64,000 nucleotides of DNA from an uncultured Acidobacteriota bacterium (GTDB taxonomy: Bacteria; Acidobacteriota; Vicinamibacteria; Vicinamibacterales; UBA2999). The first letter of the stretch is position 1, and every line of letters begins with the position of its first letter. The stretch is taken from positions 91,930 to 155,929 of the forward strand of contig CAVZXA010000007.1 in assembly GCA_963779175.1 (NCBI GenBank), read 5' to 3'. The translations under genes were made by a program, and so were the position numbers. The notes below the pieces were generated by a model, which saw only the letters and a list, made by a program, of their open reading frames with translations, had not been told where the DNA came from and made no database searches. Shown here piece after piece: positions 29,215 through 61,289 of the stretch.

Positions 29215-32016
29215 ATGAGTTTGGCTCCCGGCGACCGCATCGGCCCGTACGAGGTGGCAGGCCCCCTCGGCGCAGGTGGCATGGGCGAGGTCTACCGGGC
29301 CACCGACACGAAGCTGAAGCGTCAGGTCGCGATCAAGATCCTGCCGGCGTCGTTCGCGGCCGACGCCGAGCGCCTGGCGCGTTTCCAGCGCGAAGCCGAA
29401 GTGCTCGCCTCGCTGAATCATCCCCACATCGCCGCGATCTACGGTCTCGAAGAAAGCGGACGGCATCACGGCGCTCGTGATGGAACTCGTCGAGGGCGAG
29501 GACCTGTCGCAGCGCATCGCCCGCGGCGCGATGCCGCTCGACGAAGCGTTGCCGATCGCGAAGCAGATCGCCGAGGCGCTCGAAGCGGCGCACGAGCAAG
29601 GGATCATCCATCGCGATCTGAAGCCCGCGAACATCAAGGTGCGCGCTGACGGCACCGTGAAGGTGCTGGACTTCGGCTCGGCGAAGGCGCTCGACGCGCA
29701 CGCGTCAGGCGCGACGGCGGAGGCGATGACCTCGCCGACCATCGACCGTCCGCCTGCCGTCACGCTCCGCCACGGCTACCGCGCGGCAGGCAGATGAGGC
29801 GGGGATGATCCTCGGCACCGCCGCCTACATGGCGCCGGAGCAGGCGAAGGGGCAAGGCCGTCGACGGCGCGCGGACATCTGGGCGTTTGGCGCGGTGCTG
29901 TTCGAGATGCTGACGGGCACGCGGGCGTTCGGTGGCGACGATGTCGCCGACACGCTCGCGAACGTGATGAAGACGGAGCCGGACTGGGAGCGACTGCCGG
30001 CGGACGTGCCGGCGCGGATGCGGCAGGTGTTGCGCGCCTGCCTGCAGCAGGATCCGAAGCAGCGTCTCGGCGACATCGGCAGAGCGTGCGCCTCGCGCTC
30101 GAGGGCGCGTTCGAGACGGCCGCGCCGCAGACGACGTCATCAGCCACCGCATCGGCGTCGCGCGGACGACTGCCCTGGATGGTCGCGGCTCGCCGCCGCG
30201 GTCGTGGGGATGGTCGCGCTCGCCGTTCCCGCCTGCGGCATCTGCGCGAAACGCCGCCACCCGCGCCGCCCGAGACGCGCGTGGACATCGTCACGCCCGC
30301 CACCGACCAGCCCACGGACTTTGCCCTCTCGCCCGACGGCCGGCAGATCGTCTTCGTGGCCTCGGGCGACGGCGCCTCCCGCCTCTGGCGGCGGTCGCTG
30401 GCGACGACGACGGCCCAACCGCTGGCGGGCACCGAAGGCGCGCAGTCTCCCTTCTGGTCGCCCGACAGCCGCGCCGTCGGGTTCTTCGCCAATGGCCAAT
30501 TGAAACGGATCGACCTCGAGTGGCGGCACGCCACAGACCCTCGCTCCGGCATCCAGCGGCCGCGGCGGGACCTGGAATGCCGACGGCGTGATCCTGTTCG
30601 CGCCCAACTCCGGGGGCCCGCTGCTCCGCGTGCCGGCCTCGGGCGGCGCACCGGTCGCGGTCACCACCCTCGCCGGGCAAAACAGCCACCGGGGGCCGTC
30701 GTTTCTACCCGATGGTCGGCACTTCCTGTTCTACGCGCTGGGGACGCCGGACACCGCGGGGATTTACCTGGGGACGCTCGACGCGCCCGACACGCACCGG
30801 CTGACGGCGGCCGACGCGGCGGGCGTCTTCCTGCCGTCGGTGCGTAGCACGGGGCCTGGGTCCGCCGAAGCTCGCACCGCGGCGAAGGTGGACTCGGCGC
30901 GCCGAAGCCTCGAGCGAAGGCGGCTGGCTGCTGTGGGTGCGCGCGGGGACGCTCGTGGCCCAGCGCCTGGACCTGGCGCGGGCGGCGCTCACCGGCGACC
31001 CGGTGACGCTGGCCGATGCGGTGGCGGTCGATGCGGACGGTCAATGCCGCCGCGGTGTCGGTCTCGGCGAGCGGGCTGGTGGCCTATCGGTCGGGCGCGG
31101 GCAGTCGGCGGCAACTCACCTGGGTGGACCGGTCGGGCCAGGCGCTCGGCCCGCTGGGCGCGCCGGACGAGAACAATCTGCGCCACCTGAGCGTGTCGGC
31201 CGATGGGCAGCGGGTGGCGGTGGCCCGCACGGTGCAGGGCAACTCAGACCTCTGGCTGCTGGACGGCGCCCGCACGAGCCGGTTCACGTTCGACGCGGCG
31301 CTGGACCGCTTCCCCCTCTGGTCTCCCGACGGCACTCGGATCGCGTTCGACTCGAATCGGACGGGGCCCCGCGACCTCTACTGAAGGCGGCCAGCGGCGC
31401 GGGCGTGGAGGAGGTGCTCGTGGCCTCCCCGCAGGCCAAGGTCCCCACCGACTGGTCCGCGGACGGCCGGTTCCTGCTCTATTTCAGCGTGGACCCGCAG
31501 ACGAACTCGGACCTCTGGGTGCTCCCGCTGGAGGGGGACCGCACGCCGTGGGTGTTCCTGAAGACCCCCTTCGACGAACGCGACGGCACGTTCTCGCCGG
31601 ACGGACGCTGGGTGGCCTACCAGTCCAACGAATCGGGGCGCCACGAAATCTACATCCGGCCGTTCGCGGGGCCTGCGGCGTCTGGCGCGTCCGCCAGCCA
31701 GGTGGGCGGGCAGTGGCAGGTGTCGACGGCGGGCGGCACCTATCCGCGCTGGCGGCGCGACGGCCGGGAACTCTACTACCTCGCGCCCAATGGCGCGATG
31801 ATGGCGGCGCCGATCACCGTCACCGGGGCCACGCTCGCGCCGGGCGCGCCGGTGGCGCTCTTTCCCACGCGGGTCGTCGGCGGCGGCACAGACACGAGCC
31901 AGGGCCGGCAATACGACGTGACCCGCGACGGGCGCTTCCTGATCAACACGGTGCTGGACGAGGCGGCCGCGCCGATCACGCTCATCCAGCACTGGAACCC
32001 CGAGGCGAAGCAGTAG
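29215..32016 (+). pseudogene. K1: Ser/Thr kinase - TM - TolB/PD40 propeller paralog, heavily decayed
   Basis: Homology to K2/K3 can be followed through at least eight frame changes (ORFs 29215, 29477, 29805, 30086, 30588, 30937, 31016). About 50 nt at 29744-29793 replace 12 nt in the activation segment. A hairpin-element-like insertion lies at about 30843-30925. Confidence 0.85.
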
Positions 32017-32094
32017 CGTGGCGCGGGATTGGCGGGCGCTCGACCGGCCGGCGCTGTTGAAGCGGTGATGCCGCCCCGCCTCGACGAGTGGCGT

Positions 32095-32207
32095 TGGACG
32101 TGGAAGGTGCGGTGGTGTCGGTGATCAGTCGAGAAGACTTCATCCGCAACAAGCGCGCGGCCGGGCGGCTCAATGATCTGGCCGACATCGATTCCCTCGA
32201 GCTCTGA
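32095..32207 (+). pseudogene. C-terminal remnant of a nucleotidyltransferase-like gene
   Basis: Open only from 32071. It reads ..RVALDVEGAVVSVISREDFIRNKRAAGRLNDLADIDSLEL-stop, a tail I associate with small stand-alone NTase-fold proteins. There is no N-terminal part. Confidence 0.3.
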
Positions 32208-32321: not shown

Positions 32322-35031
32322 TTGGCCCTCACCCCCGGCACTCGACTCGGCGTCTACGAGATCACCGCGCCCCTCGGCGAAGGCGGCATGGGGCAGGTAT
32401 GGCGGGCGCGCGACACCCGACTCAATCGCGATGTCGCCCTCAAGTGTCTGCCCGACTCGTTTGCCAATGACCCCGATCGGCTGGCGCGCTTCACCCGCGA
32501 AGCGCAGACACTGGCTGCGCTGAATCACCCCTACATCGCGGCCATCTACGGACTCGAAGAGAGCGCCCCTTCGACCCCTTCGACCAGCTCAGGGCAGGTG
32601 GGTGTCACGGCGCTCGTGATGGAACTCGTCGAGGGCGAGGACCTGTCGCAGCGTATCGCCCGCGGCGCGATGCCCCTCGATGAAGCGCTCCCCATCGCGA
32701 GGCAAATTGCCGAGGCCCTTGAAGCCGCGCACGAGCAGGGGATCATCCATCGCGATCTGAAGCCCGCGAACATCAAGGTGCGCGCCGACGGCACCGTGAA
32801 GGTGCTGGACTTCGGTCTCGCCAAAGCGCTCGACGCGAATGCGTCGAGCGCGCCGGCGGACAACTCGCCGACGATCACGTCGCCGGCGATGACGCAGGCG
32901 GGGATGATTCTCGGCACCGCCGCGTACATGGCGCCGGAGCAGGCGCGCGGCAAGACCGTGGACCGACGCGCGGATATCTGGGCGTTCGGTGCCGTGCTCT
33001 TCGAGATGCTCACCGGCACACGCGCGTTCCGCGGCGACGACGTGACCGACACGATCGTGTCGGTCATCAGCAAGGAGCCAGACTGGAGCGCCGTGCCGGC
33101 CACCACGCCGGCGGGACTGCGCCAATTGCTGACGCGCTGTCTGAAGAAGGACGTCAGGACGCGACTGCAGGCCATCGGCGATGCGCGCGTGCAGCTTGAC
33201 GAGCTGCTCAGCGGCGCACTCGAAGACATGACCACCTCGCTGCCGACGGCGACGCAGACCGCGCCGACGCGGGGACGCGTGCCATGGATGGTTGCGACTG
33301 CCGCCGTGGCGGGGATGGTCGCCATGGCGACGCCTACGCTGCGCCATCTGCGTGAGGCGCCGCCGGCCACTCCGCCTGAAATGAGGCTGGAGATCACGAC
33401 GCCCGCTACTGACACGCCGCTGGATTTTGCCCTGTCGCCCGACGGCCGCCACATTGTCTACGTCGCGTCAGGTGATGGGCCCTCACGGCTGTGGCTGCGT
33501 CCCCTCGACCACACCGAGGCGCGACCGCTGCCGGGCACGGAGGGCGGGGAGGCGCCGTTCTGGGCGCCCGACAGTCGGTCGATCAGGTTCTTTGCGGCCG
33601 GCAAGCTTCAGCGCCTCGACGTCGCCGACGGTGCGCCGCAGGTGCTGGCGAGCACCGGAGGGAACGGCTTCGGCGGTAGTTGGAGCACGGACGGCACCAT
33701 TCTGTTTCAGCTCCAAGGCTCGGTCGGTGGCCTGTCGGGCGTCGCGGCCACCGGGGGCGAGCCGGCGGCCGTGACGCGACTGGATGCGCCGCGCCAGACG
33801 AGCCATCGCGCCCCGCATTTTCTTCCCGACGGCCAGCAGTTCTTGTTCTACGTCTCGGGCACGCCCGAGGTTGCGGGCATCTACCTGGGGTCGCTCGACG
33901 GTGGCAGTCCCACGCGGTTGACGGCGTCCGACTCGGGCGGCGCGTTCCTGCCGCCGGACCGCGTGGTCTTCGTGCAGGCCGGAACACTCGTGGCGCGCCG
34001 GCTGGATCTGGCCGGCCGGGTGTTGACCGGCGACCCCGTTCCGTTGGCCGACGGCGTCGGTGTAGACAGCCTTGCCAACGGGGGCTTCGCCGTGTCGGCC
34101 GCGGGCGCGGTGGCCTATCGCATCGGCGGCGGCGGGTCGCGCCAGCTGACCTGGGTGGACCGGACCGGCAAGGCCGTGGGCGTGGCCGGCGCGCCTGACG
34201 AGAATGCCCCACGGTATCCCGAGCTGTCGCCCGACGGCCGGCGTGTAGGGATGGATCGCACGGTGAAGGGCAACCTCGACATCTGGGTGCGGGATCTCAT
34301 TCGCGGCGGGCTCACGCGCCTGAGTTTCGATGCGATGGCCGATGTCATGCCCGCGTGGTCGCCGGACGGGCGGCGCATCGCCTTCACGTCATTCCGAACG
34401 GACATCAATGATCTCTACCTGAAACCCTCGGATGGGTCAGGCGCTGAGGAGCGGCTGCTGGACTCCCCGAACACCAGGACACCGCAGGACTGGTCACGGG
34501 ACGGCCGGTGGCTGCTGTACTACGAGGCCCACCCCACGACCGGGCGCGATCTGTGGGCGGTCGATATGACGAGCCCGGACCACACGCTGCGCCTCGTCGC
34601 CAACACGATTGCGGAAGAAGTGCTGGCGCAGGTGTCGCCTGACCGGGCGCTGGGTGGCGTATCAGACCAACGAGTCGGGCCGGTTCGAAGTGGTGGTGCA
34701 ATCGTTCCCCGACGCGGGCGGCAAGTGGCAGGTGTCGACCACCGGCGGCGTCTCGCCGCGCTGGCGCGCCGACGGCAAGGAGCTCTACTTCCTGGCGCCC
34801 GACGCCACGATGATGGCGGTGTCGGTCACCGCTGCGGGCACGTCGTTCGCGGCCGGCACGCCGGTGACGCTCTTTCCGACACGCGTCGTGGACGGCGGAA
34901 CGCTGGCCCGGAGCCGCCCGCAGTACGCGCTCGCGCGCGACGGCCGGTTCCTGATCAACCAGCCGGTGGCGGACGCCACGGCCGCGCCGATCACGCTGAT
35001 TCTGAATTGGCAGCCCCCGACGAAGCCGTAG
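32322..35031 (+). pseudogene. K2: Ser/Thr kinase - TM - TolB/PD40 propeller paralog, one apparent frame break
   Basis: TTG start 9 nt after TATACT. Kinase motifs: [37 protein letters not shown] segment VPWMVATAAVAGMVAMATP, then repeated SPDGR units. An extra C in GACCGGG (about 34643) shifts the frame, and the tail continues in ORF 34609..35031. Confidence 0.9.
32565..32606 (+). repeat. In-frame SGQA-type short repeat insertion in the K2 kinase domain
   Basis: gccccttcgaccccttcgaccagctcagggcaggtgggtgtc encodes APSTPSTSSGQVGV. It is absent from K3, K6 and K8 at the same position. Confidence 0.7.
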
Positions 35032-35077
35032 GGCGACCGTGCGCTCAGGCCGTGAGGCTTTCTGCTACGCTCTCAGC

Positions 35078-35368
35078 ATGACGCTCGACGCGGTCACTCG
35101 GTGTCTTCTCGGCCAGCGGGCGCTGTTGGTGGAACACGGCGTCTCGGCGCTCTACGTCTTCGGATCTGTTGCGAACGGACGAGCCACGGCGCACAGTGAC
35201 ATCGATCTGCTCGTCGAATTCTCACGGCCTGTCGGCCTTGTCGAGTTTGTCGGGTTGCAGCAGCGCTTGACGGCGGCGTTGGGACATCCCGTCGATCTCG
35301 TGACGCCTGCCGCCCTGAAGCCGCAGCTGAGATCTCGCATTCTTCGCGAGGCCGTTCGTGCCGCCTGA
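35078..35368 (+). CDS. mntA: MntA-type minimal nucleotidyltransferase (antitoxin of HepT/MntA module)
   Basis: ATG 35078. Motif: LYVFGSVANGRATAHSDIDLLVEF (GS-x10-DIDL NTase signature). It is followed by an overlapping DUF86/HEPN gene. Confidence 0.8.
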   Translation: MTLDAVTRCLLGQRALLVEHGVSALYVFGSVANGRATAHSDIDLLVEFSRPVGLVEFVGLQQRLTAALGHPVDLVTPAALKPQLRSRILREAVRAA

Positions 35369-35722
35369 GTCGAGATCGCGACGACTCCGCCTGGAGGATA
35401 TTCTTACGGCGGCTCTGCGGATTCAGTCTTACACCGCCGGGATGTCCGCGAGGAGTTTCAGGCCGATCTGAAGACCATTGATGCCGTCGTACGAAACTTC
35501 GAGGTCATGGGCGAAGCTGCGAGGCATATCGACGACGAATTCGTGGCCGATCACACCGAAGTGGCATGGCGAGAAGTGCGAGGCTTCAGGAACGTCCTGG
35601 CGCACGCATACTTCGGTGTGGATATCGCCATTCTCTGGCAGACGGTGTGCGACGACGTGCCTCACTTGATCGCAGTCGTGACACCGTTAGCGGCTGCTGA
35701 ACCGCCCGATCCTGAGTCGTAG
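35358..35722 (+). pseudogene. hepT: HepT-type HEPN (DUF86) toxin with one apparent frame break
   Basis: GTG 35358 overlaps the mntA end. The N-terminus ..RLRLEDILTAALRIQSYTAG is in one frame. The rest, ..EEFQADLKTIDAVVRNFEVMGEAARHI..RGFRNVLAHAY (R-x4-H motif), is in ORF 35507..35722. The break is near 35445-35450. Confidence 0.75.
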
Positions 35723-35784
35723 CAAGGCTCGGGACGCTGTCTCGACGCTCCCGCGGCGTTTCCGTCGGCCACCTGCCTCGACCG

Positions 35785-35803
35785 TATAATCACGTCACTC
35801 TTG
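35785..35803 (+). promoter_or_regulatory. TATAAT box 10 nt upstream of the K3 TTG start (near-leaderless promoter)
   Basis: accgTATAATcacgtcactcTTGgcc, with no Shine-Dalgarno sequence. The same architecture precedes K4, K6, K7 and K8. Confidence 0.5.
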
Positions 35804-38563
35804 GCCCTCACCCCCGGTACTCGACTCGGCGTCTATCAGATCACCGCGCCCCTCGGCGAAGGCGGGATGGGCGCCGTCTTCCGCGCGCGCGACACGAAGC
35901 TCGATCGCGATGTCGCCATCAAGGTGCTGCCCGAGGCGTTCGCGCACGATGCGGAGCGTCTTGCGCGCTTCACGCGCGAAGCCAGGACGCTCGCCGCGCT
36001 GAATCACACGAACATCGCCCACATCCACGGCCTCGAAGAGAGTGGGGGCATCACCGCGCTCGTGATGGAACTCGTCGAGGGCGAGGACCTGTCACAACGT
36101 ATTGCCCGCGGCGCGATTCCGCTCGACGAAGCGCTCCCGATCGCGAAGCAGATCGCCGAGGCGCTTGAAGCTGCGCACGAGCAGGGCATCATCCACCGTG
36201 ACCTGAAGCCCGCGAACATCAAGGTGCGCGCGGACGGCACCGTGAAGGTGCTCGACTTCGGTCTCGCCAAGGCGCTCGATCCTGCCGCCGCGTCGAGTCC
36301 CTCGTCGATGAACTCGCCGACGATCACGTCGCCCGCGATGACGCAGGCGGGGATGATCCTCGGCACCGCCGCCTACATGGCGCCCGAGCAGGCGCGCGGC
36401 AAGACGGTGGACCGACGCGCGGACAACTGGGCGTTTGGTGCGGTGCTGTTCGAGATGCTCAGCGGCACACGTGCGTTCCGTGGCGAGGACGTGACCGACA
36501 CGATCGTGTCGGTCATCAGTAAGGAGCCAGACTGGAGCGCCGTACCGGCCACCACGCCGGCGAGGCTGCGCCAATTGCTGACGCGTTGCCTGAAGAAGGA
36601 CGCCAGGACGCGACTGCAGGCCATCGGCGATGCGCGCGTGCAGCTTGACGAGCTGCTCAGTGGCGCAGCCGACGACGGGGGCAGCGCGACACCCACCACG
36701 CAGGCCGCAACTGTATCTGCGCGAGGTCGACGGCCGCTGCTGGCGGCCCTCGCCGCGGTAGCCGCGGCCGCCGCGGCACTGGCCGTGCCGGCGTGGCGGT
36801 ATCTGCGCGAAGCGCCGCCGCTCGCGCCGCCCGAGACCCGCCTCCACGTCGTGACGCCTGCGACCAGCGACCTCAGGTCGTTTGCGCTGTCGCCCGACGG
36901 CCGCCAGATCGTGTTCGCCGCCGACGGAGGCGGCGTCGCCGGACTGTGGCTGCGCCCGCTGTCCAGCACGACCGCGCGGGCCCTGCCGGGAACGGAGGGG
37001 GCGAACCTGCCCTTCTGGTCGCCCGACAGCCAGTCCATCGGCTTCTTTGCCGGCAATGCCCTGAAGCGGCTCGACCTTGCCGGCGGCTCTCCGCAGACCC
37101 TCGCCAGCGTCTCGGCTGGGTACGGCGGCGCGTGGAGCGCCGACGGGGTGATCCTGTTTGCGCCCAACTCGGCCGTCACGCCGTTGCTTCGTGTCTCCGC
37201 CACCGGCGGCACGGCCGTCCCGGTGCCGCATCGTGGGCTTCCCGGCGGCGGGCGCTCGACGGCGCCACAGTTCCTGCCCGACGGCCGGTTCGTGTTTTTC
37301 GTCCGCGGCGCCTCGGATGTCCAGGGCATCTATCTGGGCGCGCTTGACGGTGGTACGCCGACACGGCTGGTGGCCGCGGATGGCAACGGGGCGTACCTGC
37401 CCGTCCACACTCCTGCGGCCGGCGCGTCGGCCACCGGAGAAGGCGGATGGCTGCTCTGGCTGAGGCCTGGCACCGCCACGCTGGTCGCCCAGCCGCTGGA
37501 TCTCGCGACGGCGACCCTGGTGGGCGAACCGGTGACACTGGCCGACGGTGTCGCGACCGACTCCCGGCTCAACATGCCCGCGATCTCGGTCGCGCCGGGC
37601 CTCGTGGCCTATCGCAGTGGTGACGGCAATGCGCGGCAGCTCACCTGGGTAGACCGGTCGGGCACGCCACGCGGGGTCGTGGGTCCACGCGACTCGACGC
37701 TCACCAACCCCAGCGTGTCGTCCGATGGCCAGCGTGTGGCGGTTGCACGCGTGACGCAGCGTTACGCGAATATCTGGCTCTTCGATGGCCCTCGCGAAGG
37801 ACGGGTCACCGCTGAGCCCACGGCCGACCGGTTCCCCGTCTGGTCGGCTGATGGCGCACGCGTCGTGTTTTCGCGCGTCGAGGCGGCCGTCAATCTGTAC
37901 CAGAAGCGCCGCAACGGTTCGGGCGAGGCGGAGCCGGTGCTGGCGTCCGACGAGTCCAAGGTGGCCACCAGCGCATCAAGAGACGGGCGCTTCCTGCTCT
38001 ACAACAGCGTCAGCAGTGAGACCAACGTCGACATCTGGGTGGCGCCATTGACGGGCGATCGCACGCCCGCGGTGTGGCTGAAGACACCGTTCCGCGAGGG
38101 CTACGCGATGTTCTCTCCGGATGGGCGGTGGGTGGCGTACCAGTCGAACGAATCCGGACGACCAGAAATCTACGTGCGACCGTTCGTTCCACCTTCGCCA
38201 CAGGCTTCGGCGGACAAGCCCGGGACGCGCGACGCGTCGGCGGCCGAGTCCGACGGCCAGTGGCAGGTGTCGACGAACGGCGGCATCCACCCCGTGTGGC
38301 GGCACGATGGGAAAGAGCTCTTCTACCTGAGCCCGGCTGGCGAGATGATGGCGGCGCCCATCACCGCGACGTTCGGGGGCGTCGCACCTGGTGCCCCCGT
38401 GGCCCTCTTTCAGACGCGCGTCGTGGGCGGCGGCGTCGATGCGCTGCAGGCGCGCCAATACGACGTCGCCCCCGACGCGCGCTTCCTGATCAATACGGCC
38501 CTGGAGGATGGTGGGGCGCCGATCACGATCATCCAGCACTGGAGTCCCGAGGCGAAGAAGTAG
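35801..38563 (+). CDS. K3: Ser/Thr kinase - TM - TolB/PD40 propeller paralog, intact (920 aa)
   Basis: Single ORF with [26 protein letters not shown] and [12 protein letters not shown] segment [19 protein letters not shown], then repeated (F/W)SPDG(R/Q) PD40-like units. C-terminal [15 protein letters not shown]. Confidence 0.92.
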
Positions 38564-38590: not shown

Positions 38591-39091
38591 CTACGCCTGC
38601 AGCCTTCGCACCAGGTCGTCAAGCCGGTCGTAGCTGAGGCCGGCGCCCCTGGCCATCCCGGTCGCCATCACCATGTCTCGCACCTGCTTCGACTGATAGC
38701 GCACGGTGGCGGTGAAGCGCGTCTTCGCGCCCTCGGCCACCAGCTCGCTCGTGACGGTGGAGGGGCTGTCGGGGAAGTCCGCGAAGATCTCCGTGAACAC
38801 GAGCCGCCCCGGGGCTTCGATTTCGAGATATTCGCCGTAGAAGGTGGCTTCGCCCTTCGGATGGCGGTTCACGAACTTCCACTTGCCGCCGACGCGCAGG
38901 TCGATCTCGCAGACCGGCACGGAGTAGCCGTCGCCGAGGCGGCCCCACCACTCCCGCACATGTTCGGGACGCGACATCGCCTCGAAGACCAGCGCCGGCG
39001 GCGCGTCGAACAACCGAGTCATGCGGATCTCTTCGTCCGACGGGGTGGTGACGGTGAAGGTGGCGCTATTGACGCCGGGGCTTGCGAGCAT
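38591..39091 (-). CDS. SRPBCC / AHSA1 (activator of Hsp90 ATPase homolog 1-like) domain protein
   Basis: 166-aa ORF with pattern ..RLFDAPPALVFEAMSRPEHVREWWG... It overlaps the upstream ArsR gene, which is a common ArsR-AHSA1 pairing. Confidence 0.75.
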   Translation of the reverse strand: MLASPGVNSATFTVTTPSDEEIRMTRLFDAPPALVFEAMSRPEHVREWWGRLGDGYSVPVCEIDLRVGGKWKFVNRHPKGEATFYGEYLEIEAPGRLVFTEIFADFPDSPSTVTSELVAEGAKTRFTATVRYQSKQVRDMVMATGMARGAGLSYDRLDDLVRRLQA

Positions 39092-39431
39092 GGCTCTTCT
39101 CCTTGGTGGCCTGCAGGCGCTGCAGGTAAGCGTCGAGACGATTCAGGCGTCCCTGCCAGAGGTGCTGGTAGTGGGCGGCCCAGTCCACGACGTGCTTGAT
39201 CGGCCCGGCCTCGATGCTGCAGTGCCGCCACTGCGCATCGGCCCGCCGCGACACCAGCCCCGCCCGTTCGAGCACGCGCAGGTGCTTCGAGACGGCCGGC
39301 AGGCTCATGTCGAACGGCTCGGCGAGCGCCGTCACGGAACACTCGCTATCGGCCAGACGGGCGAGGATGGCGCGCCGGGTGGGGTCGGCGAGCGCGGCGA
39401 AGGTGAGGCTGAGCGGATCCGAGGACGTCAT
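39066..39431 (-). CDS. ArsR/SmtB-family transcriptional regulator
   Basis: 121-aa ORF with wHTH pattern ALADPTRRAILARLADSECSVTALAEPFDMSLPAVSKHLRVLERAGLV. Confidence 0.88.
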   Translation of the reverse strand: MTSSDPLSLTFAALADPTRRAILARLADSECSVTALAEPFDMSLPAVSKHLRVLERAGLVSRRADAQWRHCSIEAGPIKHVVDWAAHYQHLWQGRLNRLDAYLQRLQATKEKSHARKPRRQ

Positions 39432-39437
39432 GTAGTG

Positions 39438-50206: not shown

Positions 50207-50210
50207 TGCC

Positions 50211-53635: not shown

Positions 53636-54262
53636 TCAGGACAGCAGCCGCGTGCGAACATCCTGCACGCGTGCCAGCAACTCGGCTGACGCGAGCTCGG
53701 GATGGGCTTCGAGCAACGCGAGCACGTCGGCCACATCGTGGGCCCGCTTGCTGGGGCGGCGCGCCGGCTCCATGGCCGCCGACAGTTTCAGCGCGATCAG
53801 GTCGGCCACGCTCGCCACTCGCAACGGCACGTCGCCCTCGAGCGTTACCACGCTGGCGCGCGTGACGGCCTCGGCAATCCCTTCGTCTTCGGCCGAGAAC
53901 TGCACGGCGGTACGCTGCTTCAGTGGTGCTGAGCCGGGCGCACGCCAGTTGTCGCTGTGCTCGTGACGGCCAGTGTGCTCGAAGCCGGCGGCAGGCAGTG
54001 CCTCGCGGGGCACATCGGCATAGGTGGGCACGGCGAGATCGATGTCGAGCGTGGTTCGAGGGTCTTCGGTGTGCAGCTGCACGGCAACGCCTCCGATGAG
54101 GGCGTAGGGCACGCCCTCCCGTTCGAGCAGCTGCGCCACGAGCCGTAACGGACCTTCTTTGGTGTCCCCATCCGGCAGGCCCATGGTCTCACTCCAGAGT
54201 CGATCGAGGGCATACGCCGTGGCCGGACGCTCGCGCGCTTCCGTGGTCGTTGGGCCCTTCAT
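53636..54262 (-). CDS. Minimal nucleotidyltransferase-fold protein (208 aa), copy 3
   Basis: Nearly identical to 49395..50021. Its stop is 2 bp from the K7 stop. Its start faces the K8 promoter across 65 bp. Confidence 0.75.
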   Translation of the reverse strand: MKGPTTTEARERPATAYALDRLWSETMGLPDGDTKEGPLRLVAQLLEREGVPYALIGGVAVQLHTEDPRTTLDIDLAVPTYADVPREALPAAGFEHTGRHEHSDNWRAPGSAPLKQRTAVQFSAEDEGIAEAVTRASVVTLEGDVPLRVASVADLIALKLSAAMEPARRPSKRAHDVADVLALLEAHPELASAELLARVQDVRTRLLS

Positions 54263-54315
54263 CGTGCTCGAAGTCTAGCATCGGAACACCGGGCTCCCGA
54301 CGGCATCCCAGCCCG

Positions 54316-54468
54316 TATAATCTCGCCGTGGCCCTCACCCCCGGCACCCGTCTCGGCGTCTACGACGTGCTCGCCGCCATCGGCGAAGGCGGCCCGCCTT
54401 CGCTCGCGCATGAGGCGTGCGAGCTTCGGCGAGGTCTCGCCGTAGCCCGATGGGGCTCGACATGGTGA
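54316..54468 (+). promoter_or_regulatory. K8 5' region: TATAAT-N6-GTG promoter, kinase-stub uORF, hairpin element, uORF stop overlapping the K8 ATG
   Basis: TATAAT 54316-54321, GTG 54328, hairpin element 54393-54451. TGA 54466-54468 overlaps ATG 54462. Confidence 0.6.
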
Positions 54469-57191
54469 TCGGCGAAGTAATCGGGTCGTACACGATCATC
54501 GCGAAGCTGGGCGAAGGCGGAATGGGGCAGGTGTTTCGCGCGCGCGACACCAAGCTGAATCGCGACGTGGCACTCAAGGTGCTGCCTGATTCGTTTGCCC
54601 ACGACCCGGAGCGCCTGGCGCGGTTCACGAGGGAAGCGCAAACGCTGGCGGCGCTGAATCACCCGCACATCGCGGCCATCTACGGCCTCGAAGAGTCACA
54701 CGGCGTCCGCGCCCTCGTGATGGAGCTGGTCGAGGGCGACGACCTGTCACAGCGCATCGCCCGTGGCGCGATCCCGCTTGATGAGGCGCTGCCGATCGCC
54801 AGGCAGATCGCCGAGGCGCTCGAAGCCGCGCACGAGCAAGGCATCATCCATCGCGATCTGAAACCCGCGAACATCAAGGTGCGGCCTGACGGCACCGTGA
54901 AGGTGCTGGACTTCGGTCTCGCCAAAGCGCTCGACGCGCACGCGTCGAGCGCGACGGCAGACGCGATGAACTCGCCCACGATTACCACACCCGCCATGAC
55001 GCAGGCCGGGATGATTCTTGGCACCGCGGCCTACATGAGCCCTGAGCAGGCGCGCGGGAAGGTCGTGGACAAGCGCACCGACGTGTTTGCGTTTGGCGCG
55101 GTGCTCTACGAGATGCTGGCCGGCGTGCGCCCGTTCGCGGGCGAAGACGCGACCGAGATGATTGCCGCGGTGGTGAAGTCGACGCCGGACTGGTCGGCGC
55201 TGCCCGCCGACGTGCCGCGTCCGCTCGTCACGCTCATCCAGCGGTGTCTCGAGAAAGACCGCAAGGCGCGGGTCGGCGACATCGCGGTGGCGCGCTTCCT
55301 GTTGGCGGACGCCGCCACGCTGGGTGCCTCGATGCCGGGCGTGGTATCACCCGCCGCGGTGCCCCGTTCGGGGTCGGCACGCGCGCTGCCGTGGGCCGTC
55401 GCTGGAGCCGCTCTGCTGACGGCCGGCGTGATGCTGACGCTATGGGCGCCGTGGCGCACGGACCCGCCGGTGGATCGGCCGCTGGTGCGACTGGACGTCG
55501 ACCTGGGCGCCGACGTGTCGTTGCCCGGGCCGAGTCAGGCCGGCAGCAGCGTCGCCATCTCGCCTGATGGCACGCGACTGGTCTACGCCTCCGGCACGCC
55601 GCCCAGACTTTTCATTCGCAGGCTCGATCAGCCGAATGCCGTGGAGCTTCCGGGCACGCAAGGCGCCACTGCGCCGTTCTTCTCTCCCGATGGTCAGTGG
55701 GTGGGCTTCGCTGCAGACCGCGGGATCAGCAAGATCGCCGTCGAGGGTGGAGCCGTCGTCCCGCTTGGAGACATCGCCACGTTCCGAGGCGCAAGTTGGG
55801 ACGGCGATGGCAGTGTGATCGTGGCCTCGGGTGTCGAGCTGCGGCGTGTTGGCACAAGCGGCACCCCATCGGCTCTCGCGACGCCAGGAGACGGCGAGCT
55901 TGGTTTGTTTGGGCCCCAGAGTCTGCCCGGCGGCACGGCGGTGCTGTTCTCGGTAGACAAGCAAGGCGACGTGAACCAGTCCACGATTCAGGTGTTGACC
56001 CTGGCCGATGGTCAGAGGAAAACCGTGATTCGTGGCGGCGCGTCGGGCCGGTATCTCGCCACGGCGGAAGGCGCCGGCCATCTCGTCTACCTCAACCAGT
56101 CCACCCTCTTTGCGGTGCCGTTCGATGTGACGACGCTCGAGGTGCGGGGGGACGCGGTGCCGATCCTCAACGACGTCGCGTCGGAAGACCTGGCGGGCCT
56201 CGGTCAATTCGATGTCTCCGAGGCGGGCACGCTGGTCTACCGGCGCGACAGTGGCCGCGGGTCAGCACTGAACACGCTGCAATGGGTTGACGCGACAGGC
56301 GGGAAGGAGTCGCTGCGCGCCGCACCGACCAGTTACCTGGGGCCACGCGTGTCGCCAGACGGCACACAGGTGGCACTGTTTACCGTGGGTCGGCAGGGCA
56401 CCGATGTGGTCATCTACGACGCGCAACGAGACGTGACGACACGACTGACCTCTACGAACCAGGACAACTGGCCGATCTGGAGTCCTGACGGACGTCACGT
56501 CGTGTTCCGGCGCAACGGCGTCGGACTGCTCCAGGCGCGTGCCGATGGTGCACGTCAGCCGCAGGTGCTCGTTCCCGCCAATGCCGGGCTGTCGAGTGGG
56601 TCGTTCACGCCCGATGGCCGGCGGCTGGCCTACACGTCGATGGCTACCCGCACGCAGCAGATCTGGACCGTGCCAATCGAAGACCGCGGCGGCGAGTTAC
56701 ACGCGGGAACGCCTGAGCGGTTTCTCGCGAGCCAGTTCGTCGATACGCAGCCGGCGTTCTCGCCCGACGGGCGTTGGCTGGCCTATGTGTCGAACGAGTC
56801 AGGCACGGAGGAGGTCTACGTGCGCCCGTTTCCTCCGCCAGTGTCCGGACAGGGCAGCCGGTGGCAGATCTCGAACACCGGCGGCAGGACGCCGCTCTGG
56901 TCGCGGAGTGGGCACGAGTTGATGTACCAGGCGGGCGATCAAATCATGGCGGTGAGCTACGCCGCGAGCGGGGACGCGTTCGTGGCGAATAGGCCACGGG
57001 TGTGGATCGCCGCGCTCGGCGCGGCCAACACGCGCACCACTATTGCCAGCATGTGGGACCTGGCACCGGACGGCATGCGCGTGCTGGCTGTGACGCCAGC
57101 GGCGGCAGAGCCGACGAAGGCGGAGCACCACGTCGTGTTCCTGCAAAACTTCTTCGACGAGCTGCGCCGGAAGGTGCCGCTAGGGAAGTAG
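54462..57191 (+). CDS. K8: Ser/Thr kinase - TM - TolB/PD40 propeller paralog, intact (909 aa)
   Basis: ATG 54462 begins MVIGEVIGSYTIIAKLGEGGMGQVF. The kinase domain is almost identical to K6, while the sensor part differs. It ends VFLQNFFDELRRKVPLGK. Confidence 0.92.
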   Translation: MVIGEVIGSYTIIAKLGEGGMGQVFRARDTKLNRDVALKVLPDSFAHDPERLARFTREAQTLAALNHPHIAAIYGLEESHGVRALVMELVEGDDLSQRIARGAIPLDEALPIARQIAEALEAAHEQGIIHRDLKPANIKVRPDGTVKVLDFGLAKALDAHASSATADAMNSPTITTPAMTQAGMILGTAAYMSPEQARGKVVDKRTDVFAFGAVLYEMLAGVRPFAGEDATEMIAAVVKSTPDWSALPADVPRPLVTLIQRCLEKDRKARVGDIAVARFLLADAATLGASMPGVVSPAAVPRSGSARALPWAVAGAALLTAGVMLTLWAPWRTDPPVDRPLVRLDVDLGADVSLPGPSQAGSSVAISPDGTRLVYASGTPPRLFIRRLDQPNAVELPGTQGATAPFFSPDGQWVGFAADRGISKIAVEGGAVVPLGDIATFRGASWDGDGSVIVASGVELRRVGTSGTPSALATPGDGELGLFGPQSLPGGTAVLFSVDKQGDVNQSTIQVLTLADGQRKTVIRGGASGRYLATAEGAGHLVYLNQSTLFAVPFDVTTLEVRGDAVPILNDVASEDLAGLGQFDVSEAGTLVYRRDSGRGSALNTLQWVDATGGKESLRAAPTSYLGPRVSPDGTQVALFTVGRQGTDVVIYDAQRDVTTRLTSTNQDNWPIWSPDGRHVVFRRNGVGLLQARADGARQPQVLVPANAGLSSGSFTPDGRRLAYTSMATRTQQIWTVPIEDRGGELHAGTPERFLASQFVDTQPAFSPDGRWLAYVSNESGTEEVYVRPFPPPVSGQGSRWQISNTGGRTPLWSRSGHELMYQAGDQIMAVSYAASGDAFVANRPRVWIAALGAANTRTTIASMWDLAPDGMRVLAVTPAAAEPTKAEHHVVFLQNFFDELRRKVPLGK

Positions 57192-57222: not shown

Positions 57223-57627
57223 TCAGTCCAGGAAGTCGTAGGGCACGCGCACGCGGTCGTAGGTGATCCGCGCTCGCTGATCCCGCGTCACAAGGGTGGC
57301 GCCAGCATGTAGGACTGTGGCCGCGATCAGCGCATCGTAGATGGCGCCGCCAGTGAGCCCCTCGCGGCTTGCCATCTCGATGAGCCCCATGTACCCCCGC
57401 GCCGGCAGCATCAGGGGCGCGTCGCCAAATCGCGCTGCCAGAAACGCCTGCACCACATCCGCGGGCGCCCGATGCGGGGGCGGCAGTCGGGTCAGCACCG
57501 AGAACGTCTCAATCACGACGTGCGCGGGAATCCGCGGCGCTCGTGCGAGCACCGCCGCTGCCGAGGCGTGCCCCTCGTGCCAGCTGGCAAAGGCCGCCAC
57601 CACCACGCTCGTATCGACGGCGATCAC
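57223..57627 (-). CDS. vapC: PIN-domain toxin VapC
   Basis: 134-aa ORF: MIAVDTSVVVA.. then ..GGAIYDALIAATVLHAGATLVTRDQRA. It has a 4-bp overlap with the upstream antitoxin. Confidence 0.85.
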   Translation of the reverse strand: MIAVDTSVVVAAFASWHEGHASAAAVLARAPRIPAHVVIETFSVLTRLPPPHRAPADVVQAFLAARFGDAPLMLPARGYMGLIEMASREGLTGGAIYDALIAATVLHAGATLVTRDQRARITYDRVRVPYDFLD

Positions 57628-57890
57628 CGCCGTGTTCCCTCGAGTGCGGCTCGAACCATGGCGTCGGTCAGTGGCGGCAGGGGCTCCTCCGGAACGGCCA
57701 CCAGGCCACTGCCTCGTTGCTCGAGAGACATCACCGTGGCCACCGGCTCGATCTCCAGCAGCCCGTCGCGTTCGCGAATCTCGACCACTTTGCCGGCCTC
57801 GAGTCCCAGCCGCGTGCGAATGGCTTTTGGAATGACAATTCTCCCGGCGCCATCGATGGTGGTTTGCATGGCATTATTATGCCATTTCAA
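57624..57890 (-). CDS. vapB: AbrB/SpoVT-type antitoxin VapB
   Basis: ..IDGAGRIVIPKAIRTRLGLEAGKVVEI.. is a swapped-hairpin motif. The true start may be the MQTTIDG Met at 57869. Confidence 0.8.
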   Translation of the reverse strand: MKWHNNAMQTTIDGAGRIVIPKAIRTRLGLEAGKVVEIRERDGLLEIEPVATVMSLEQRGSGLVAVPEEPLPPLTDAMVRAALEGTRR

Positions 57891-57963: not shown

Positions 57964-58003
57964 CGTGCTGCACGTGAACGACGTGCTGCCCCAAAGGCCT
58001 GCT

Positions 58004-58237
58004 ATGAAGACCAACGTGACGCTCAAGCTGGACGTCGATCTGCTCCGCGAGGCTCGCGTCGTGGCGGCCGAAGAGGGGCGGTCGATCAGCGGATTGCTGA
58101 CGGACCGGCTCGAGGCCATCGTCCGTGAGCGGAAGGCCTTCGACAAGGCCCGGCGCCGGGCGCTCGCGCGGCTGCGCGAAGGCCTCGACCTGCAGTGGAC
58201 CCCGCCCATGTCGCGCGACCAGCTCCATGAGCGATAA
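58004..58237 (+). CDS. Ribbon-helix-helix-type antitoxin
   Basis: ATG 58004 begins MKTNVTLKLDVDLLREARVVAAEEGRSISGLLTDRLEAIV... It overlaps the PIN gene by 11 nt. Confidence 0.75.
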   Translation: MKTNVTLKLDVDLLREARVVAAEEGRSISGLLTDRLEAIVRERKAFDKARRRALARLREGLDLQWTPPMSRDQLHER

Positions 58238-58655
58238 GTGTTTCGTCGACACCAACATCCTGATGTACGCCCACGACGCCGACGCGGGTGAGAAGCACGA
58301 ACGCGCCCGGGCCTTGGTCGAAGAGCTGTGGCGGGATCGGACCGGCGTGGTGAGCACACAGGTGCTGCAGGAACTCGTCGTGAACCTGCGGCGCAAGGCG
58401 GCAAGGCCGCTCGACCCCGCGGCAGCGCGGGACGTCGTCGTCGACTACCTGGCGTGGCAGGTCGTGGTGAATACCGGTGAGTCGATCCTCCACGCGCTCG
58501 ACCTCGAGCAGCGGTACCACATTTCGTTCTGGGACGCGCTCATCGTCCACGCTGCGGACGTGTCCGGTGCGTCCGTGCTGTATTCCGAGGACCTGTCCAG
58601 CGGCCAGCGCTACGGTGCGGTCACGGTCGTCAACCCGTTGATTCCGACCGCATAG
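58227..58655 (+). CDS. PIN-domain toxin (VapC-like)
   Basis: ATG 58227 begins MSDKCFVDTNILMYAHD.., then ..STQVLQELV.., FWDALIVHAA and LYSEDL. The PIN acidic residues are present. Confidence 0.85.
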   Translation: MSDKCFVDTNILMYAHDADAGEKHERARALVEELWRDRTGVVSTQVLQELVVNLRRKAARPLDPAAARDVVVDYLAWQVVVNTGESILHALDLEQRYHISFWDALIVHAADVSGASVLYSEDLSSGQRYGAVTVVNPLIPTA

Positions 58656-58659
58656 GCAC

Positions 58660-61289
58660 TTGACGCTCGCTCCTGGCACTCGTCTCGGCGTCTACGAAGT
58701 GATCGCTCCCATCGGCGCCGGGGGCATGGGCGAGGTGTACCGGGCGCGCGACACCCGGCCCGAACTGGCGCGCGAGGTGGCCATCAAGACCCTCGCGGGC
58801 GTGGCCGCCGACCCCGAGCGGCGCCGCCGCTTCGAACTCGAGGCGCGGGCCACGGGCGCGCTGAACCATCCCAACATCCTCGCCATCTACGATGTGGGTA
58901 GCCACGACGACTCGCTCTATCTGGTCGAGGAGCTGCTTGACGGCACCACGCTGCGCGATCCGCTCGAGCGGGGCGCGCTCGCGCCGCGCAAGGCCGTGGA
59001 GTACGCCCGCGCCATCGCGCAAGGCCTGGCCGCGGCGCACGCCAAGGGCATCACGCACAGGGATCTCAAGCCCGAGAACGTGATGATCACCGCCGATGGG
59101 CGTTTGAAGATTCTCGACTTCGGCTTGGCCAAACTGCACGAGCCGTCGAGGAGTTCAGACGCCGCGACCACCGCGCACCAGACCGACGCCGGCACCGTGC
59201 TGGGCACCGTGGCCTACATGTCGCCCGAACAGGTGCGCGGACAGTCCGTCGATCCGCGCTCCGACATCTTCAGCCTCGGCGTCGTGCTCTACGAGATGCT
59301 GGCGGGTGCGCGGCCGTTCGTTGGCCCGACCTCACAAGACACGCTCGCGGCGATTCTGAACGCCGAACCGGCGGATCTGCCGATGGCCGAGCGCGCCATT
59401 CCGCCCGCGCTGGAGCGTGTAGTGCGGCGCTGCCTCGAGAAGCAGCCCGAGCAGCGGTTCCAGTCGGCCAGCGACCTCGCGTTCGCGCTCGAGGCGCTAT
59501 CGTCGCTGTCGACTTCGTCATCGGCGTCCGGACCCGCCATGGCTGCGGCCGCGCCGCAGAACCGGCTGTGGGACCGCGCCGGGTGGCTCGTGGCCGCACT
59601 CGCGTCGGTGGCGGCCATCGGGTTCGCCGTGGCCCCGCGCCGGGCGGCGCCGGAGGAGACGGATCCGGCGTCCATCCACTTCACGCAGCCCGTCGTGACT
59701 CTGCCGGTCACCACGGGAGCTCTGCCAGTTCCCGCGATATCCCCTGATGGGCGGCATCTCGCCTATGCAGCACCCAGGGGGCAGGGCGGAGCCGTCTTCC
59801 TGTGGGTCCGCTCGTTCGACGACGTGGACGCCAGGGTCATCGAGGGCACGGACGGCGCGCTTTACCCCTTCTGGTCTCCCGACTCGCGCTCGGTGGGGTT
59901 CTTTTCTGCAGACAGGCTGAAGGTGGTGTCGCGGGACGGTTCGCGGCTTCGCGAGTTGTGCGCCGTTTCCCAGGGCAGACGGGGCACGTGGGGTGCCGAC
60001 GATGTGATCCTCGTCAGCACGAATTCGAACCCACGCATCCTGCGGGTCTCGTCGAGCGGAGGCGAGCCCACGGCGATCACCACCCCGGACGTCGCGCAGG
60101 GCGAGCGTCGGCATGGTCAGCCAGCGTTTCTGCCTGACAGCCGGCGCTTTTTGTACCTGAGCCAGACCGACCAGGGCAGCTCGGTGATGGTGGCCTCGCT
60201 CGACGGCGGCCCGGCGGTGCGACTCGTGGCGTCCACCACGGTCGCGCAGGTCCTCGAAGGGGCACCTGCTCTACCTGAGTGGCACGACGCTCACGGCGCA
60301 GCCATTCGATCCCGATACGCTTCGTCTCGGTGCCCAGGCCGTGTCGGTCACCGCCGACGTGAAGATTGAGCCGCAAAATGGCGAGGCGGCGTTCTCGGCC
60401 TCGGAATCCGGCACGCTGGTCTACATGGCCGGCACATCCCCGACATTCGAAATGTCGTGGTTCGATCGCGTGGGTCGCAAAGGGGTAGCCGTGGGCGAAC
60501 CAGGGCCGTGGACCCAGATGGCGCTCTCCCTGGACGACCGGCAGCTCGCCGTGCAGCGCGGCGGCACGGTGGTTGGCGAACTCTGGCTGTTCGACGTCGT
60601 GCGCTCCGTGTCGTCCAGGTTCACCACTGACGGCGGCAACCATGGACCCGTGTGGTCGCCGGACGGCAAGACGCTCGCCTTCCGCAACAACCGCAGAACC
60701 GTGAACGAGGTGTTCCGTAAGCCGCTCGGCGGTGACGACGCGGTGGCGTGGAACGGGATTCCCGCCGAACGTCTCGAGGACTGGTCGCGGGATGGGCGCT
60801 ACCTCCTGATGGGCCGGATCACTGGCGGCCTGCTGGTCGTGCCGACGACTGGTCAGGCCACTGTGGTGGACGCGTCCGCGGCGAACACCGATGAATCACA
60901 GTTCTCACCGGATGGCCGCTGGATCTCGTACCTACTCTGCGGTCTCGGGTCGCAGCGAGATCTACCTGCAGCCGTTTCCGGGCCCTGGCGAGCGCGTCAC
61001 CGTGTCGTCGAGCGGCGGCGTTCAGGCCAAGTGGCGCGGGGACGGGAAGGAACTCTTCTATCTCACGCCTGAGGGCACGATGATGTCGGTCGAGGTGCGG
61101 CCCGGGGCGCGGCTCGACCTCGGCACGCCGAGGCCGCTCTTCACGACCAGACTGCGCCCAAACATCTCTTCGGATCAGTTCGTCGTGACGGCCGACGGTC
61201 AGCGGTTCATCGTCATGGAACCGCCAGCTGACGCACAACTCGACGCCTTCACGATCGTGACGAACTGGACGACGCTGCTGAAGAAGTAG
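58660..61289 (+). pseudogene. K9: divergent Ser/Thr kinase - TM - TolB/PD40 propeller paralog, two apparent frame breaks
   Basis: The TTG start is 4 nt after the PIN stop. Motifs: GAGGMGEVY, HRDLKPENVMI, DFGLAK, GTVAYMSPEQ. The breaks are near 60250-60262 and 60928-60934. The pieces are ORFs 58660.., 60341.. and 60891..61289. Confidence 0.85.

Follow-up and report, generated by a model that had tools for sequence, protein, structure and literature searches.

We analyzed a stretch of 64,000 nt (the window, to which all positions refer) from the + strand of contig CAVZXA010000007.1 (positions 91,930-155,929; assembly GCA_963779175.1) of an uncultured Acidobacteriota bacterium (UBA2999). The window has ~70% G+C, and its closest relatives are Acidobacteriota metagenome-assembled genomes (MAGs), mostly from Vicinamibacteria/Vicinamibacterales. 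Between 29.2 and 61.3 kb it encodes nine co-oriented loci of Hanks kinases, joined through a transmembrane segment to a PD40 propeller and all on the + strand, as determined by tblastn with the intact K3 protein and by Pfam. Genes of toxin-antitoxin (TA) type occur in seven of the eight junctions between these loci (Pfam). The region forms a tandem array that belongs to the chromosome of a Vicinamibacteria-type Acidobacteriota and is inherited vertically. For comparison we used 80 loci from other species, sampled by kinase homology only and named here by L-numbers; the genes of all loci were called with a simple codon-usage caller. Kinase borders are hot spots for the accumulation and turnover of small TA modules and of a few other small genes, a finding that is well supported by this comparison.

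The kinase loci (K1 to K9) comprise seven full-length genes, one pseudogene (K1, 29215-32016, found as tblastn fragments in three frames) and one 5' fragment (K4, 40410-40795), besides which there is an orphan 5' stub. The full-length copies are K2 (32322-35031, with one frame switch near 34643), K3 (35801-38563, intact, 920 aa, with TATAAT 7-8 nt before a TTG start), K5 (41513-44314, with two frame switches), K6 (46515-49392, a kinase/PD40 body with a TATAAT leader and one 1-bp indel at 48083), K7 (50827-53633, intact), K8 (54311-57191) and K9 (58660-61289), the most divergent copy, which lies across three frames. The tblastn matches to K3 extend over 40437-40759 in the K4 fragment, 46659-49392 in K6, 50844-53633 in K7 and 54456-57191 in K8, and short N-terminal kinase stubs were matched at 46531-46596, 50086-50157 and 54328-54444. 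Pkinase (PF00069) was detected in K2, K3 and K5-K9 (E = 1e-43 to 1e-53), and every substantial copy has PD40 repeats (PF07676, E = 1e-16 to 1e-28) C-terminal to the kinase domain. The catalytic motifs (the VAIK Lys, HRDLKPxN, DFG and APE) are legible in the K3 translation and present in the intact copies, and a single hydrophobic segment separates kinase and propeller in K3. The products are predicted to be receptor kinases in which a single transmembrane helix connects a cytoplasmic Hanks-type Ser/Thr kinase to a PD40/TolB-like beta-propeller in the periplasm. An exact-sequence look-up of K3, with either an L or an M start, returned no match; the same look-up with MazF did. A first-pass annotation made from the letters alone had described a co-oriented kinase/TolB-propeller array with a TA cassette in almost every junction, and the tblastn and Pfam searches agree with it on both points.

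The array half holds seven bicistronic TA-type pairs plus solo and remnant genes in 32 kb, and no TA-like pair was found in the non-kinase 29 kb of the window. The predicted type II modules consist of adjoining or overlapping small genes, one a member of a toxin family and the other of a DNA-binding antitoxin family. In five pairs (MntA/HepT, HigB/HTH_3, TumE/HVO_A0114, RHH_1/PemK and MazE-type/PIN) both partners scored above the Pfam cut-offs. Thus, the first-pass calls of MntA-HepT, HigBA, RHH-MazF, VapBC and nucleotidyltransferases (NTases) were upheld, and a small-protein/wHTH pair could be named as TumE with an HVO_A0114 wHTH. Its NTase remnant between K1 and K2 (32100-32205, +) did not fare as well. 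The frame ends in ISREDFIRNKRAAGRLNDLADIDSLEL followed by a stop, a tail that merely looks NTase-like, and the possible C-terminal remnant was not confirmed, having no support from Pfam, NCBIfam or tblastn.

Downstream of K2 lie, on the + strand, an MntA-type NTase (35039-35368; PF01909, E = 9.5e-14; PADLOC PDC-S09), the predicted antitoxin of an MNT/HEPN pair, and its putative HepT/HEPN RNase toxin (35370-35722). The latter is full length with one frame switch near 35440: PF01934 matches 35507-35722 (E = 5e-15), and the N-terminal part is in the adjacent frame. The junction after K3 carries two non-TA genes on the - strand, for an AHSA1/SRPBCC protein (38591-39091; PF08327) and an ArsR-family regulator (39066-39431; PF12840/PF01022). 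An AT-rich palindrome of 42 bp (TGTAGTGAACCTAATGGTTAATTAACTACTTGGTTTAATACA, 39431-39472) directly upstream of the ArsR-family gene is probably its operator. A secreted protein (39522-40520, -), with a weak DUF7918 match (PF25534, E = 4e-4, below the cut-off), is a junction resident that is kept in the syntenic relative L025. Between K4 and K5 are HigB (40886-41176, +; PF05015) and a HigA-type HTH antitoxin (41160-41489, +; HTH_3, PF01381).

The junction after K5 begins with a DUF2442 remnant (44341-44578, +) that lacks its DUF4160 partner. The remnant, proposed in the first-pass annotation, is real, because it aligns over two frames (72-78% amino acid identity) with the DUF2442 gene of an intact DUF4160-DUF2442 pair in L025. 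It is followed by the putative TumE-family toxin (44637-44933, +; PF20126, E = 1e-16) and its HVO_A0114 wHTH partner (44914-45261, +; PF25212, E = 5e-28), and by a truncated AbiEii-type NTase (copy 1, 45284-45763, -; PF08843, E = 4.5e-6), which has 85% amino acid identity to residues 50-208 of a full copy. An RHH-PIN pair had been called before K6. Its PIN-like toxin stands in part, as a weak match below the Pfam cut-off (46058-46480, +; E = 3.3e-4), and its putative RHH (45797-45923, +) has no profile match in Pfam or NCBIfam.

NTase copy 2 (49395-50021, -; PF08843, E = 5e-11; PADLOC AbiEii, E = 7e-15) stands alone and convergent with K6. Beyond it are the orphan kinase promoter and 5' stub (50069-50157, +), which ends at the Gly-loop codons, and a predicted RHH antitoxin (50190-50450, +; RHH_1, PF01402) with a MazF/PemK toxin (50435-50770, +; PF02452, E = 9e-31). 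Copy 3 of the NTase (53636-54262, -), between K7 and K8, has 96% amino acid identity to copy 2. The last junction holds a putative PIN toxin (57223-57627, -; PF01850, E = 2e-15) and AbrB/MazE-type antitoxin (57624-57890, -; PF04014, E = 4.5e-11), both conserved in L025, then a weak RHH-like antitoxin (57965-58237, +; DUF6364-like, PF19891, E = 6e-5, below the cut-off) and a PIN/VapC toxin (58227-58655, +; PF01850, E = 2.4e-11; NCBIfam VapC family, E = 9e-8, sub-threshold). The NTase, TumE, the PIN at 46058 and the remnants received no name from NCBIfam.

The window NTases fall outside the AbiE definition, as the AbiEii domain is present and the AbiEi partner absent. No AbiEi-like gene was found in the open reading frame (ORF) list upstream of any of the three copies, because a kinase promoter or stub begins ~48 bp away. 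AbiEii-like NTases are encoded on the kinase's strand in L003 (12802-13676), L070 (12930-13804) and L025 (12756-13385), and in L003 and L070 the gene is preceded by one for a 98-aa protein without a family match; the window copies are convergent and partnerless.

The called genes of the window include no integrase or transposase (ORF inventory, Pfam), and an inverted-repeat scan of 29-62 kb found no attC-like or recurring inverted repeats at cassette boundaries, as the first-pass annotation had stated. A chromosomal integron or superintegron was rejected given that there is no integrase-like ORF in the window and no recurring attC-like element. As no tRNA genes were found in the window, a tRNA-linked island was ruled out as well.

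Several array genes are broken between frames, and so are ordinary genes elsewhere in the window. Split genes encode an Amidohydro_3 amidohydrolase, an ABC ATPase, an M20 peptidase and FtsH (at 7086-9587(-)/7193-7657(-), 18683-21139/19542-20387, 10790-12812 and 27115-29155); FtsH switches frame near 27,560. With at least four such breaks in ~27 kb, the background amounts to about one frameshift per 5-7 kb. The breaks in K2 (one), K5 (two), K6 (one), K9 (two) and HepT (one) occur at the same rate, the MAG that contains L025 is likewise full of frameshifts, and K6 differs from K8 by a single 1-bp indel with five other indels that are all multiples of three. Given this, the breaks are most simply explained as long-read consensus errors, and those in K2, K5, K6, K9 and HepT are probably errors of long-read assembly. 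A reading of the frameshifts as decay was rejected for K2, K5, K6 and K9, since ordinary genes break about as often. Among the array kinases only K1 is clearly decayed, as the first-pass annotation had it. K1 has nine frame-disrupting indels relative to intact orthologs, including insertions of 31, 49, 4 and 2 bp, and its L025 ortholog has fourteen, none in K1's columns; other orthologs are clean. With no frameshift common to the two, K1 is a genuine pseudogene that has eroded independently in both lineages. In long-read MAGs, pseudogenes in paralog arrays need to be judged against the background frameshift rate. An M20/M25/M40 peptidase gene is duplicated in tandem, with copies at 11220-12831 (frameshifted) and 12971-14584 (intact) that have 88% DNA identity.

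L025 is collinear with the window, at 78% identity in the upstream housekeeping genes, 76% in K1 and 86.5% in K5. Collinearity also covers the 3' part of K2, a K2/K3-like copy, the secreted protein (93.7% identical to L025 13413-14281) and K8, which together with the downstream AbrB-PIN and RHH genes is 86.8% identical. The junction after K8 is the sole one with cargo common to both. In detail, the ~300 bp after K1 in the window correspond in L025 to HicB/HicA, which replaces the 5' 1.6 kb of K2, and where the window has MntA-HepT after K2, L025 has a Phd-type antitoxin with a PIN. After the K2/K3-like copy, ArsR/AHSA1 is present in the window, is absent from the equivalent junction of L025, and has an AbiEii-like NTase as its counterpart. 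Before K5, the K4 fragment and HigBA of the window face a PIN in L025. After K5, L025 has the intact DUF4160-DUF2442 pair and then the K8 ortholog, whereas the DUF2442 remnant of the window is followed by a stretch of ~9.7 kb with TumE and its partner, truncated NTase, PIN, K6, NTase, stub, MazEF, K7 and NTase; K6, K7 and MazEF are absent from L025. This alignment shows that the kinase genes are a conserved scaffold and that the cassettes turn over at fixed junctions. In the synteny comparison proposed in the first-pass annotation, L025 keeps the kinase scaffold and has lost or gained kinase DNA right beside TA cassettes. The stretch between an M19 dipeptidase gene and K1 also differs, with genes for a 7TM-HD protein, a DinB-like protein and FtsH in the window (24936-29189) and an unnamed gene plus a Uma2-family endonuclease in L025 (3085-4367); the upstream edge of the array is therefore variable too.

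Many co-oriented kinase arrays occur among the 80 loci, some tightly packed and others with wide junctions. A TA homology search in relatives that started from seeds was biased by those seeds and was therefore replaced by Pfam scans of a near set (119 small genes <=500 bp from a kinase) and a far set (150 random small genes >2 kb away). Matches in the near set were PIN (15), MazE-type (6), DUF433 (5), PemK, ParE and PrlF (3 each) and VapB, HicA, Phd/YefM, DUF5615 and AbiEii (2 each), and HepT and DUF4160 too. The far set consists of ordinary metabolic and regulatory families; among TA-type families, only the MntA-type NTase has two or more members in it, counted by two overlapping Pfam models (NTP_transf_2 and Polbeta). 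For PIN, near and far sets differ with a Fisher p = 2.8e-5, assuming at most one far-set PIN, as single-member families were only partly listed. As a family-independent proxy, we counted tight co-directional small-gene pairs by distance to the kinase border. Per 100 kb there are 32.9 at 0-500 bp, ~7.7 at 0.5-2 kb, 2.6 at 2-4 kb and 0.8 at >4 kb (Poisson p ~5e-34 for enrichment at kinase borders). In the species compared, TA density rises 12-40-fold at kinase borders. The first-pass annotation had offered, as its second option, that the array is a hot spot accumulating accessory cargo; the border TA density and the differing L025 junctions bear this out.

The ways in which cassettes arrive may be read from scars, of which K4-HigBA-K5 is the one mosaic insertion resolved in full. 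In a 5'-end alignment, the K4 fragment is the ortholog of the 5' region of L025 kinase 4 (its upstream flank, its promoter and its first ~200 nt). The homology ends at 40753, within the LARFTREAQ codons. The leader of K5 has no TATAAT box and comes directly after HigA. This leader and the first ~85 codons match the kinase downstream of HigBA in L006, where the HigA-kinase linkage is 84% conserved, and, starting at a small insertion that they share, K5 then agrees with L025 kinase 4. In combination, these matches show that HigBA and a kinase 5' end entered a resident kinase. The right crossover is in the kinase near codon 85, the left join at 40753 is non-homologous and codons 1-65 are duplicated. 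K4 is the displaced original promoter and 5' end of K5, stranded by the arrival of HigBA. Its earlier description as a 5' fragment is correct, and a reading as the remains of a separate gene is not.

Similar traces are found elsewhere. A copy of the kinase promoter and 5' end stands on either side of MazEF (50069-50157 and 50827-50914), and the MazEF-kinase junction is reproduced in the independent short-read contigs L002 (96.8%, no gaps) and L001. Stub-then-cargo layouts recur in L053, L061 and L048, and with non-TA cargo in L052, L009, L069 and L013; for example, in L053 a 70-aa stub and AbrB-PIN precede a kinase whose N-terminus is ~92% identical. In L080, a duplicated C-terminal (3') stub of a kinase adjoins MazF. 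Within the 5' region, DNA conservation is highest at the Gly-loop and LARFxREA motifs, and it is there that breakpoints cluster. In at least two cases (the K4 stub and L025 K2), a kinase gene was damaged when a cassette arrived.

We also considered that the array and its stubs are mis-joins or collapsed repeats of an error-prone long-read MAG, given the frameshift in every 5-7 kb or so even of housekeeping genes and the near-identical 1-kb repeats of K6 and K8, which are of the kind that assemblers mishandle. This is highly improbable. L025, an independent MAG, agrees in gene order across K1, K2, K5, K8 and the TA genes downstream, the MazEF-kinase junction occurs gapless in short-read contigs from other samples, and the HigA-K5 junction is conserved in a different species (L006). 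The K6/K8 leader, in which a 116-bp insert runs into the kinase start, is 90% conserved in L024, and arrays and stub-cargo layouts are found in dozens of unrelated assemblies.

On balance, we consider it probable that the array is a recombination hot spot with cassette capture anchored in kinase homology and with TA retention by addiction. Judging from the scars, a cassette would travel physically linked to the end of a kinase gene and integrate by recombination that is anchored in conserved kinase DNA on one side and closed by a non-homologous join on the other. The route would resemble homology-facilitated illegitimate recombination (HFIR), the signature of which is one-sided homology with recipient DNA duplicated or deleted (PMC3240628). 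Products with one homologous and one non-homologous join were found at K4-HigBA-K5 and in L025, where HicBA replaces 1.6 kb of K2. Such an event would strand the resident promoter and first 22-67 codons as an orphan stub, and could delete resident kinase DNA. Since TA modules are addictive, they would be retained preferentially once inserted, as expected from established TA behaviour, which biases the cargo towards TA. We infer that kinase-anchored recombination is a general route for these cassettes. The first-pass annotation saw no obvious mobile platform; this holds for integrases, transposases and attC sites, but the K4/K5 scar indicates that the conserved kinase DNA itself appears to be the platform, used as a recombination anchor.

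A number of points weigh against this account. The capture route rests on the scars of a small number of events, intermediates (excised or incoming) were not seen, and no obvious microhomology was established at the left-hand joins. Measurements of HFIR have shown it to be rare (PMC5361080). The stubs could also be leftovers of internal deletions of whole kinase copies, with the TA genes kept since their loss is lethal, as in the lock idea discussed below. TA pairs 3' of solitary kinases have no demonstrated 3' anchor scar, except in L080. The near and far sets depend on a crude gene caller and on MAGs that are often frameshift-ridden, and enrichment was measured in loci sampled by kinase homology only.

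The array paralogs recombine with each other, as their identity profiles show. In a self-comparison of the window, a segmental triplication is apparent that comprises K6, K7 and K8 together with the NTase that follows K6 and K7. K6 and K8 are 96-100% identical from 46556 to ~47566 (promoter and whole kinase domain) and then 65-90% in the propeller, and K6 and K7 are 92-98% identical over a block that begins at 48953 and includes the NTase. This mosaic shows that kinase domains are homogenised by gene conversion while sensor propellers diverge, in agreement with the first-pass remark that kinase domains are alike and PD40 parts diverge. L025 kinase 5 is a mosaic as well, with a K7-like (94%) segment in which its identity to K6 and K8 is only 58%. 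Its identity to the K8 propeller is 97-99% at the DNA level over ~1.4 kb, far above that of the flanks (78%; 54510-56900 versus L025 19800-21587). This points to a recent exchange between lineages inside the array, with transfer of ~1.4 kb of K8-type propeller.

Recombination between paralogs is what the other proposal of the first-pass annotation presupposes, namely that junction TA modules are anti-deletion locks, kept because post-segregational killing removes cells with RecA-mediated paralog deletions. The mosaics of K6/K7/K8 and L025 kinase 5 are consistent with it, as are the ~1-kb near-identical direct repeats of K6 and K8 that bracket MazEF and two NTases. TA cassettes stabilise the superintegron of V. 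cholerae (PMC11551772), and stub-TA-kinase layouts could in principle come from deletions halted at a TA module. However, TA-like pairs are equally frequent per kinase border at solitary kinases (10/60) and in arrays (24/152). Of the 10 pairs at solitary kinases, nine are directly downstream of the kinase stop. Tight arrays of at least three kinases persist without junction cargo (L013, L030, L057 and L073). L025 lacks K6, K7 and MazEF, and the 5' 1.6 kb of its K2 was lost exactly at HicBA. These three observations fit a lock poorly. In addition, the K4/K5 mosaic represents insertion of foreign DNA and not deletion, and solo, truncated and remnant modules (the NTase copies, DUF2442) fit turnover better than maintained locks. 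A lock is thus unlikely, and is not supported as the cause of the kinase-TA association. Stabilisation of the array is possible as a side effect; under kinase-anchored capture, protection against deletion would be a by-product and not a cause.

A different explanation for the association is that kinases and neighbouring TA or NTase genes cooperate and the array is an immune-receptor-like defence island, in which, for example, a surface-sensing kinase phosphorylates an antitoxin or toxin and so triggers growth arrest or abortive infection. In many species the association is confined to kinase borders, and AbiEii-type NTase genes directly follow kinases in L003, L025, L070, L012 and L024 and three times in the window. 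Diverging sensor propellers with homogenised kinase domains are also seen in diversifying receptor families. The kinase domains match the PADLOC kinase-defence models PD-T4-6, mad6 and MkoA, but these matches cover the generic Hanks kinase domain only and were ruled out as evidence of defence. Moreover, the cargo is drawn from many unrelated TA families, in both orientations, and differs between close relatives at one and the same junction, which indicates the behaviour of selfish insertions and not of co-evolved partners. Many kinases have no adjoining TA genes, and non-TA cargo (ArsR/AHSA1, lipoproteins) is present too. We consider cooperation of this kind improbable.

Capture at kinase borders resembles several known systems. 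Arrays of orphan immunity genes at type VI secretion system (T6SS) effector-immunity loci and Rhs orphan tips have been proposed to form by sequential displacement through HFIR (Kirchberger et al., 2017, PMC5361080), and orphan 3' tips at Rhs and contact-dependent inhibition (CDI) loci are known from polymorphic toxin systems (PMC3482391). The likeness lies in the integrase-free build-up of small modules at a fixed locus, in a conserved coding segment that serves as homologous anchor while the other end is joined illegitimately, in fragments of resident genes left as orphans and in mosaic arrays exchanged between lineages by homologous recombination. Here, however, the anchor would be a family of housekeeping-type receptor kinases and not a toxin-delivery gene, the cargo consists of generic type II/IV TA modules that are functionally unrelated to it, the displaced pieces are 5' promoter/N-terminal stubs and not 3' toxin tips, and there are many landing sites per genome, in arrays and at solitary copies.

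The Vibrio superintegron shares a long co-oriented array, scattered TA modules and cargo flanked by repeats (PMC11551772), and TA addiction plausibly biases retention in both. In contrast, no IntI, attI, attC or Pc was found here, the repeats are 2.7-kb functional genes, and TA modules are as common beside solitary kinases, and a stabilising role is not needed for the pattern. Hot spots flanked by core genes (PMC3240628) likewise show cargo turnover between conserved flanks and insertion by one-sided homology, but the flanks here belong to one gene-converted paralog family and the hot spot is replicated many times within a genome. The proteins themselves are not unusual, with the domain architecture (PF00069 with PF07676) and catalytic motifs of other Hanks kinases with TolB/PD40.

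The individual parts are ordinary (Hanks/PD40 kinases, common TA families, gene conversion and HFIR-like scars). A limited literature search found no relevant report of a link between PD40 kinases and TA modules in Acidobacteria, and no description of a receptor-kinase paralog family as a phylum-wide platform for TA recombination. The interest lies in the genomic behaviour of the kinase family and not in its proteins. The movement and clustering of chromosomal TA modules are poorly understood outside integrons, plasmids and prophages. A host gene family that supplies the recombination substrate is a concrete, testable case, built on duplicated 5' stubs, mosaic genes, cross-species enrichment and syntenic genomes with different junction cargo, and it illustrates how a family of signalling genes can be reshaped by TA traffic in a soil phylum that is abundant but little studied. 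More tentatively, the large and dispersed kinase paralog family across Acidobacteriota could be an integrase-free cassette platform with portable anchors that TA modules exploit to spread within genomes and from one genome to another, a generalization that we put forward as possible and somewhat short of probable. Candidate anchors may be its ultra-conserved DNA motifs, namely the promoter with the N-terminus, the Gly-loop, LARFxREA and the C-terminal NW...K tail. If true, TA modules remodel the kinase repertoire through stubs, leaders with upstream ORFs (uORFs), chimeras and copy-number changes, and selfish TA modules have a new way to move without a dedicated recombinase.

The kinase 5' ends that would act in capture have features of their own. 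Nearly every kinase copy has a TATAAT box 7-8 nt upstream of a GTG or TTG start, with TATAAT-like boxes within 35770-35803, 40395-40445, 46505-46535, 50815-50847 and 54300-54332. Cargo genes of relatives have the same arrangement (L003 12790-12805; L006 9725-9745), with GTG, TTG or ATG starts. As this layout is found at kinases and cargo alike, leaderless transcription is probably a trait of the lineage, in which leaderless mRNAs would be common.

K4, K6 and K8 carry a first N-terminus (A), then a 116-bp insert and then a second N-terminus. In K4 the TATAAT box, N-terminus A and insert precede N-terminus B, which runs to ~codon 65. K6 has the N-terminus A uORF at 46532-46596 and the insert at 46597-46712, and in K8 the N-terminus A uORF and the insert (54394-54509) are followed by the kinase/PD40 body. 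In all three, the ATG of the second N-terminus overlaps the TGA stop of a 46-codon upstream frame (ATGGTGA). These frames, leaderless and composed of an old kinase N-terminus and the insert, are at 40438-40630, 46532-46724 and 54329-54521 (the related stretch of L024 is 4623-4726), and may serve as translationally coupled leaders. In K7 and L025 kinase 5, the first N-terminus is joined directly to the kinase without the insert. The insert is 100% identical between K6 and K8, 98% in K4 and 90% at the L024 kinase start, and was found only at kinase 5' ends, besides short partial matches in L051 and L032. The predicted RNA fold of the leader with the 116-bp insert was not significant (z = -1.1), and a regulatory RNA (hairpin, attenuator or REP element) was dropped as a candidate.

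At the opposite end of the genes, several kinase 3' flanks of relatives contain short tandem repeats, such as (CTGCCCC)n, (AGAAAGA)n and (GATTGAC/GGATT)n. The sites are L031 2770-2860, L042 8372-8420, L049 12750-12850, L067 12740-12840, L070 12767-12810 and L018 4090-4180.

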